52,955 bases of DNA from an uncultured Pseudomonadota bacterium (lineage in GTDB: Bacteria > Pseudomonadota > Gammaproteobacteria > Ga0077536): the NCBI GenBank assembly GCA_913047675.1, contig CAJWTO010000005.1:1-52955 (forward strand), written 5' to 3'. Shown one piece after another: positions 21,097 through 21,657 of the stretch. The notes beneath the pieces are model-generated. The model was not told the origin of the DNA and ran no database searches. It saw only the letters and a program-made list of their open reading frames with translations. Positions within the stretch are counted from its first letter, which is position 1. Each line of letters opens with the position of its first letter. Made by a program: the position numbers and the translations under genes.

Positions 21097-21657
21097 CTAG
21101 GCAAGCCCCTCTGACGCCAAGTAAGATTTAGTATCCGTATCTACATCAGTCTTGAACGTAGCGTGCACTCGATTCACCATTGCAGAGAGCCCGACAGTCA
21201 TTGAAAGTTCAACAATCTGTTCCTGACTAAAATACTTGTCTAGGCGCGCATACATTTCGTCGCTAACGACATTATTCATCGTTAATTGCTCTGAATACTC
21301 TATAACACAAAGATCGGCTTCACTAAATGAGTCACACATCTTTGTGTCGCCCATACTGCGCAATTCATTTTCTGTGAGTCCGACGCTCCGACCGAGCATC
21401 ATGTGTGTAGGTATTCAGTAGTGGCAATCGTTTACCTGGCTTGCCCTTAGATAAGCCAACTCTCTGTGTCGCGGCAATAGCTCAGGCTCTGCGTAAAGCG
21501 CCTCTGCGATTAGTAAAAAACCTGATGCAGCTTTTGGGTTGTTTGCCCACAATTTGAACACGTTCAGCAATGTGAAACCCAATTTTTCCATACGGAGAAA
21601 CATTTCGCGAATATCGTCATTCGCCAGATCTGGCTCTACCAGTGAGATCCTAGACAT
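21097..21657 (-). CDS. AhpD/carboxymuconolactone-decarboxylase-like protein with in-frame UGA (putative selenocysteine, CHYU = CxxU motif)
   Basis: Track ORFs 21415..21672 and 21097..21402 are in the same frame, separated only by TGA at 21415-21417. The read-through RELAYLRASQVNDCHY(U)IPTH...GLTENE...EQIVELSMTVG forms a complete CMD/AhpD fold of 186 aa from ATG 21657 (GGAG upstream). A SECIS-like hairpin follows. Alternative: nonsense pseudogene or sequencing error. Confidence 0.75.
21382..21400 (-). promoter_or_regulatory. Putative bacterial SECIS hairpin GAUGCUC-GGUCG-GAGCGUC
   Basis: 7-bp stem (one GU pair, extendable by a further UG pair) with a G-first apical loop containing GGUC. The stem starts 15 nt and the loop 22 nt after the UGA. 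Confidence 0.65.

Follow-up and report, generated by a model that had tools for sequence, protein, structure and literature searches.

The minus strand of the window, by which we mean the whole stretch of 52,955 nucleotides that was analysed, carries a reading frame from 21657 to 21097 whose sole interruption is a TGA at 21417-21415. The features of the gene are as follows.

21097..21657, minus strand: predicted selenoprotein coding sequence of the CMD/AhpD family, 186 codons and a stop, translated with TGA as U
21667..21670, minus strand: GGAG, a Shine-Dalgarno-like motif read from the sequence, 9 nt from the ATG
21657-21655, minus strand: start codon, ATG
21415..21417, minus strand: in-frame UGA, codon 81, read as selenocysteine; TGA stands at the same codon in the orthologs
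21099-21097, minus strand: terminal stop of the coding sequence

Upstream and in the same orientation lie genes for a fused enoyl-CoA hydratase/3-hydroxyacyl-CoA dehydrogenase and for a zinc-type (MDR) dehydrogenase, and the downstream neighbour, an acyl-CoA synthetase gene, is convergent. Gene callers divide the coding sequence at the UGA into open reading frames of 80 and about 105 amino acids.

The 186-residue product has the redox motif C78-H-Y-U81 followed by IPTH. It matches the Pfam CMD model (PF02627) with 44 bits against a cut-off of 23 and TIGR00778 (ahpD_dom) with 33.8 bits against 27.8, thus the CMD/AhpD core domain is present. In an alignment with Pseudomonas PA0269 (PDB 2o4d/2ijc), the segment NDCHY[U]IPTH is matched by NGCAYCVNMH, so that U81 corresponds to the second Cys of the catalytic CxxC; the Cys homologue P0029 has CHYCIPTH at the same site. 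Weaker matches, below threshold, were to the model for a 'YciW-related (seleno)protein' and to that for a 'peroxidase-related enzyme'. The product scored under the cut-offs of the curated selenoprotein models NF053654 (58 against 310 bits), TIGR01926 (57.1 against 81.8 bits) and NF041238 (18.4 against 175 bits), and CHYU-IPTH is thus a related but uncurated subfamily.

After the interruption the minus-strand mRNA reads UGA AUACCUACACAC AU GAUGCUC GGUCG GAGCGUC G, exactly as it had been given in the sequence-only reading, which proposed a SECIS-like stem-loop at 21382-21414; that range was right overall but left out the last pairing G, at 21381. When the U of the UGA is counted as position 1, the element consists of the following parts.

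21402..21414, minus strand: spacer of 13 nt that separates UGA and hairpin, covering codons 82-85 and the A of codon 86, with freely varying synonymous sites
21394..21401, minus strand: 5' arm of the proposed SECIS stem, UGAUGCUC, U17-C24, from RNAfold and pairing in homologues
21389..21393, minus strand: apical pentaloop GGUCG, G25-G29, with invariant alignment columns 35-37
21381..21388, minus strand: 3' arm of the proposed SECIS stem, GAGCGUCG, G30-G37, from RNAfold and pairing in homologues

RNAfold returns an 8-bp hairpin both as the minimum free energy structure (−11.5 kcal/mol) and as the centroid (−11.3 kcal/mol), made of 7 bp and a terminal U.G, in line with the stem of 7-8 bp drawn before. 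The first loop base, G25, is the 22nd nucleotide after the UGA, where the start of the GGUC had been placed, and translation gives M-M-L-G-R-S-V for codons 86-92, so the hairpin does also encode the peptide that was read from it. The folding of the 60 nt after the UGA, suggested at that stage as a check, turned out not to discriminate, as the stability is unremarkable (z = −0.21) and 79 of 200 dinucleotide shuffles fold at least as well; stability alone therefore neither confirms nor refutes a SECIS. The form of the hairpin, by contrast, is rare by chance. Of random positions in the genome, 0.04% carry an uninterrupted stem of 7 bp or more whose loop is an NGUNN pentaloop beginning at positions 19-31, and 0.76% fit a looser definition; the comparison of homologues presented below goes far beyond chance. 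An Rfam scan of 21050-21750, with E-values up to 10, gave nothing at the hairpin and returned noise only (eukaryotic snoRNA and 5.8S models, 11-17 bits). A lower helix like that of fdhF, between positions 8-13 and 37-42, was rejected, as it pairs in only 53.9% of cells.

The bSECISearch model of Zhang and Gladyshev for bacterial SECIS elements, as summarised in PMC13188914, sets a distance of 16-37 nt between UGA and loop. It allows 3-9 nt for the apical loop, whose first two positions must include a G (pattern G[G|U]), and 4-16 bp for the upper stem, and it asks for a minimum free energy of −7.5 kcal/mol or lower. The sequence-only reading had stated that such models need a loop G at a defined distance from the UGA, and all four published limits hold here: the loop GGUCG has 5 nt and the stem 7-8 bp, the loop starts with G-G followed by U, 21 nt separate it from the UGA, and the hairpin is given −11.3 kcal/mol. 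We found no violation of the model; a conserved lower helix is absent from our element, and the model needs none.

In the E. coli fdhF SECIS, the mini-hairpin bound by SelB spans nt 15-31 and starts 11 nt after the UGA; it requires a bulged U17, and its loop is G22-G23-U24-C25, of which G23 and U24 are needed (PMC8659212). A likeness to fdhF had been noticed from the outset, and it lies in the loop sequence: the apical loop begins with GGUC, though here as part of a pentaloop, and the GU lies at loop positions 2-3. The hairpin is likewise in frame at a short, fixed distance from the UGA, and the logic of tethering SelB would by analogy be shared. Beyond this the two elements differ: the bulged U17 and the 11-nt spacing are absent, a pentaloop replaces the tetraloop, and 13 nt separate the UGA from the stem when this is counted as 8 bp, or 14 nt when it is counted as 7 bp. 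The GU, at 26-27 instead of 23-24, is 3 nt and thus one codon further from the UGA, and the stem is continuous, with a bulge in none of 49 sequences. Judged from its sequence, the element is one that should work like the fdhF SECIS but is not of the fdhF subtype, and because the bulged U and the 11-nt spacing are absent, E. coli SelB may not read it.

In order to find homologues, we performed a six-frame search of 81 genomes of the order, which comprises a single family, and this yielded 50 protein matches in 48 genomes, at 40-94% identity. All 50 have TGA at codon 81 and none has Cys there. In protein collections the family is present as pieces. Every match in a collection of 5.8 billion proteins is a C-terminal fragment of about 105 amino acids, and among 1.84 billion representatives the closer matches are N-terminal pieces of 80 amino acids or C-terminal ones of about 105, with no full-length relative above 38% identity. 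As these fragments are bounded by the UGA, it is apparent that gene callers cut the family at this codon everywhere. The public calls P0002-P0028, P0042, P0058 and P0181 are fragments of 80-81 amino acids from the N-terminus or 104-117 from the C-terminus, with the exception of P0181, which is only apparently a full-length relative, its contig having been called with TGA as W.

For the RNA-level comparison, 43 orthologs of the order were combined with six UGA forms from two other clades, namely CFYU forms from metagenomes and CHYU/CYYU forms, some of them from Acetobacteraceae MAGs, giving 49 distinct UGA sequences. The hairpin is found in all of them, and the distance between UGA and loop is 21 nt throughout, without indels. 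In the 43 orthologs 99.1% of stem cells are paired, against 26-44% in slid controls, and over the 49 sequences of the three clades 97.4% are paired, against 29-44%. Loop positions G26, U27 and C28 are invariant in the 49 sequences, and position 25 is G in 48. Compensatory double changes affect two pairs of this alignment, in nine cells, a level that none of 500 shuffles reached: at pair 18-36, A-U or C-G takes the place of G-C, and at pair 21-33, C-G replaces G-C or G-U. Several of them entail amino acid replacements in both arms of the stem: Met becomes Ile where Ser becomes Gly or Arg, and Val becomes Ile. Such a nearly invariant element offers only modest covariation: double changes occur in only two of its eight pairs, and they are confined to a few divergent lineages. 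As the 21-nt element lies in frame and also encodes M/V-M-L-G-R/L-S-V, it is under selection on both the RNA and the peptide level.

The most divergent ortholog (L087, G008:C1:1317878-1318414, 40% identity) has two TGA and one TAG codons in frame, that is, two extra stops, and a stem made almost entirely of G.U pairs (GGUGUUC-GGUCG-GAGUGUU), while selB is still present in its genome. It is probably a decaying pseudogene whose SECIS decays alongside.

We also searched the host genome, a 2.15-Mb assembly that is 88% complete and has MAGs and SAGs of uncultured marine Gammaproteobacteria as its nearest named relatives, for the selenocysteine machinery. The following genes were found, all above cut-off.

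C58:8108-9454: selA, 565 bits
C58:9502-11391: selB, 419 bits
C58:12706-12795: tRNA-Sec with anticodon UCA (tca), 70 bits
C17:5609-6529, minus strand: selD, 291 bits

The selD match lies inside an open frame of 745 amino acids, far longer than SelD alone, which adjoins the Prx-like UxxC gene at C17:5105; the selD of the host may thus be a fusion protein, and Ndh-SelD fusions have been described in the GOS paper (PMC2398784). TGA terminates 270 of 958 long frames in this genome, and its reassignment as a sense codon was rejected for this reason.

To find further cases, we scanned the genome for TGA codons that interrupt long open frames and precede a stem of 6 bp or more with GU at the start of its loop. 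Nine of 675 sites passed; six of them lie in families of selenoprotein type, where the UGA occupies the redox position that would be expected, and the other three have different loop forms and come without family support; under the strict hairpin definition four sites pass, against 0.27 expected. The six genes are listed with coordinates that give the 0-based offset of the T of the TGA, to which 1 is added for 1-based numbering.

This gene: CMD/AhpD, CHYU, loop GGUCG
C58:7681, plus strand, gene approximately 6960-8055, TGA at 7682-7684 (1-based): AhpD_rel_CFYUT (NF041238), 323.6 bits against a cut-off of 175, loop CGUGC
C15:24991, plus strand: PrdB-like, UxxC, loop CGUGU
C66:12189, plus strand: UGSC family, loop AGUUU
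C17:5105, plus strand: Prx/redoxin-like, UxxC, loop UGUAU
C14:12375, plus strand: Prx/redoxin-like, UxxC, loop AGUUA

All six loops are NGUNN pentaloops that start at positions 20-28, and the hairpins of the five other genes have 6-8 bp with loops 16-24 nt after the UGA. From their sequences these five are probably selenoprotein genes too, and the UGSC, PrdB-like and Prx-like companions among them are the set typical of marine bacteria. The data suggest a lineage-wide SECIS consensus of a 6-8 bp stem with an NGUNN pentaloop. The CFYUT gene heads the selA-selB-selC cluster on C58, directly upstream of selA, and its hairpin reads GCUACUU-CGUGC-AAGUGGC.

Two other CMD selenoprotein subfamilies in relatives of the same bacterial family carry hairpins of their own (L065-L073 and L075, in G018, G059, G013, G055, G030, G026, G008, G023, G039 and G029, and L074 at G026:C85). 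In the subfamily with NGCPF-U-VDINSFRA the hairpin is UUCGNUC-CGUGC-GANCGAA, with the GU at 23-24 as in E. coli and with U-A and G-U alternating at one pair, and in the subfamily with NDCFL-U-LHARL it is GCCUUGC-GGUC-GCAAGGC, with an fdhF-like GGUC tetraloop.

Across the order, selB is present in 70 of the 81 genomes. Of the 48 carriers of the ortholog, 46 have it, and the remaining two are MAGs of 400 and 800 contigs. By coordinates, the ortholog lies near selA-selB in about 12 genomes, including G045, G106, G027, G041, G105, G034, G058, G101 and G102. Three neighbourhoods (L108-L110) show the arrangement: in G032 (C101) and G047 (C4) the ortholog is divergent from selA-selB, and in G015 (C37) it is directly upstream on the same strand. 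The CHYU ortholog is found immediately beside selA-selB in two genera, and in the host genome that place is held by the CFYUT paralogue.

These data bear on the possibility that the UGA is read through independently of selenocysteine, by near-cognate decoding as Trp, Cys or Arg, or that the hairpin is a pause or regulatory structure and not a SelB-dependent SECIS. In other systems, structures downstream of a stop codon are able to promote its read-through, and SelB binding and the insertion of selenium are things that we only infer. The UGA is, however, at the catalytic Cys position, where only Sec or Cys preserves function, and the loop has the G-U that is read by SelB in characterised systems (PMC8659212). 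The recurrence of the NGUNN loop on the five other selenoprotein-type genes of the genome, the co-occurrence of the ortholog with selB and its position next to selA-selB in several genomes also argue against such a mechanism, and we consider it very unlikely.

The strongest single result for a SECIS is the freezing of synonymous sites. In a codon alignment of 30 orthologs, the fraction of synonymous differences was calculated for each 7-codon window, and codons 86-92 give the minimum of the gene, 0.062, compared with a gene mean of 0.558 and with 0.438 for the next-lowest non-overlapping window. This dip matches the hairpin to the codon. Within it, Val86 is GTG in 24/24, Leu88, for which six codons are possible, is CTC in 30/30, Gly89 is GGT in 29/29 and Val92 is GTC in 30/30; residue 90 is CGG wherever it is Arg (15/15) and CTG wherever it is Leu (13/13), and Ser91 uses AGY only. 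The flanking residues I82, P83, T84, H85 and G93 are equally conserved and use all their codons, and the fraction is 0.51-0.73 over spacer codons 82-85.

The only true Cys forms to emerge were P0029 and P0179, which stem from the same sample. The locus L103 (UGU; CHYC-IPTHTVIGRSVG) reads GUG AUU GGU CGC AGU GUA across the hairpin positions, with the peptide TVIGRSVG, and L104 (UGC) reads CUA AUC GGG CGG AAU AUA, where the GU of the loop is lost too. In these two loci, translated with the standard code, five of the eight pairs remain and the hairpin is gone, and the synonymous sites of stem and loop are altered (CGC, GUA, GGG), whereas UGA forms of the same clade retain GUGCUC-GGUCG-GAGCCUU. 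With 79% identity between them and a single sample as their source, L103 and L104 amount to about one independent Sec-to-Cys event. A metagenome scan with P0029 gave more UGA forms, of the CFYU clade, and no Cys forms. The hairpin is also absent from nine non-Sec paralogues of the same bacterial family, in which 3-6 of the eight pairs form. The comparison of UGA and Cys homologues, which the sequence-only reading had proposed as a test, therefore separates the two groups, with the hairpin in 49/49 UGA forms and in neither L103 nor L104.

An extremely unlikely alternative is that the hairpin has no function at the RNA level and is a by-product of the conserved peptide M-L-G-R-S-V. Some pairing does come with the peptide, as AUG (Met) opposite AGC-GU (Ser-Val) makes three pairs even in the Cys paralogue L058, non-Sec homologues keep the 3-6 pairs given above, and the z-score of the fold is only −0.21. 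A peptide constraint, however, does not account for third positions that are frozen in Leu, Gly, Val and Arg codons while those of the flanking conserved residues vary at 0.5-0.7, nor for pairing that is retained where the residues themselves change, as in the replacements on the two arms. The loss of the hairpin in Cys forms that use other codons for a near-identical peptide (IGRSVG), together with the frozen synonymous sites, excludes this reading.

That the UGA is a true stop, in a pair of genes or a split gene with re-initiation at AUG86 or AUG87 and a hairpin that tunes the coupling, is hardly credible, although every database gene call shows the 80- and ~105-amino-acid frames and an AUG AUG stands 12 nt after the UGA in the host genome, because codons 86-87 are GCG AUC in L085 and L086, which thus have no start codon there and keep the hairpin by compensatory change. 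Moreover, the sequence before AUG86 (AUACCUACACAC) is not a purine-rich ribosome-binding site and the AUGs sit inside the stem. Neither of the halves makes up a CMD fold by itself, as a stop at the second Cys of CxxC parts the two redox residues, and all 50 matches retain both the frame and the TGA.

We therefore conclude, with high confidence, that the hairpin UGAUGCUC-GGUCG-GAGCGUCG, on the minus strand at 21401-21381, is a bacterial SECIS and belongs to the gene at 21657-21097, a selenoprotein gene of the CMD/AhpD family. The sequence-only reading had regarded the hairpin as support for recoding of the UGA, and its retention in the UGA forms, the synonymous freezing and the full Sec machinery bear this out. 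SelB binding, selenium incorporation and the loop bases that are contacted are inferred, and we propose that they would operate as follows. While the ribosome is approaching UGA81, the C-terminal winged-helix domains of the host SelB encoded on C58 would bind the hairpin, which begins 13 nt beyond this codon, through G26 and U27 of its apical loop. SelB would bring Sec-tRNA(Sec), with the anticodon UCA and likewise encoded on C58, and its delivery to the A site would compete with release factor 2; selenocysteine would then be inserted as the last residue of C-x-x-U, in the place of the second Cys, and translation would continue through the hairpin.

A set of 27 AhpD-like CxxU selenoprotein sequences has been described from the Sargasso Sea (PMC1088965), and in the GOS data such proteins rank, along with the UGSC, PrdB and Prx-like ones, among the selenoprotein families of greatest abundance (PMC2398784). 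The marine types are AhpD-like 1, which is COG2128, and AhpD-like 2, which is pfam02627, and the AhpD-like families were described with many Cys homologues (PMC1088965, PMC2398784). Our gene shares with them the CMD/AhpD fold, CxxU in place of CxxC, a marine bacterial origin and a SECIS with a small apical loop that contains G, and on these sequence features it is a further, predicted, AhpD-like CxxU selenoprotein, of a kind already known as abundant in the sea. Unlike the known families, CHYU-IPTH scores below the curated cut-offs and has no Cys ortholog across the 81 genomes of the order. This last observation, and the repeated position of the gene beside selA-selB, are the basis for a more speculative idea, which we think improbable, that the CHYU-IPTH clade is an obligately Sec-dependent AhpD-like subfamily with a near-invariant GGUCG SECIS common to Gamma- and Alphaproteobacteria. 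If so, gene and SECIS could have spread horizontally as one unit, and the role of the protein could be tied to the selenium machinery, for example in the redox maintenance of selenium delivery, and not to generic peroxide defence.

The hairpin leaves the known mechanism of selenocysteine insertion unchanged. It does show dual coding, in that seven codons are frozen, RNA compensation is paid for in amino acid replacements, and the constraint is freed upon the change from Sec to Cys. For annotation, the family is called as two open reading frames in essentially every record found, including the orthologs of 48 genomes, and the local SECIS consensus could improve the calling of selenoproteins in this uncultured marine lineage. 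Recognising the SECIS restores a full redox enzyme, predicted to have selenocysteine in its active site.
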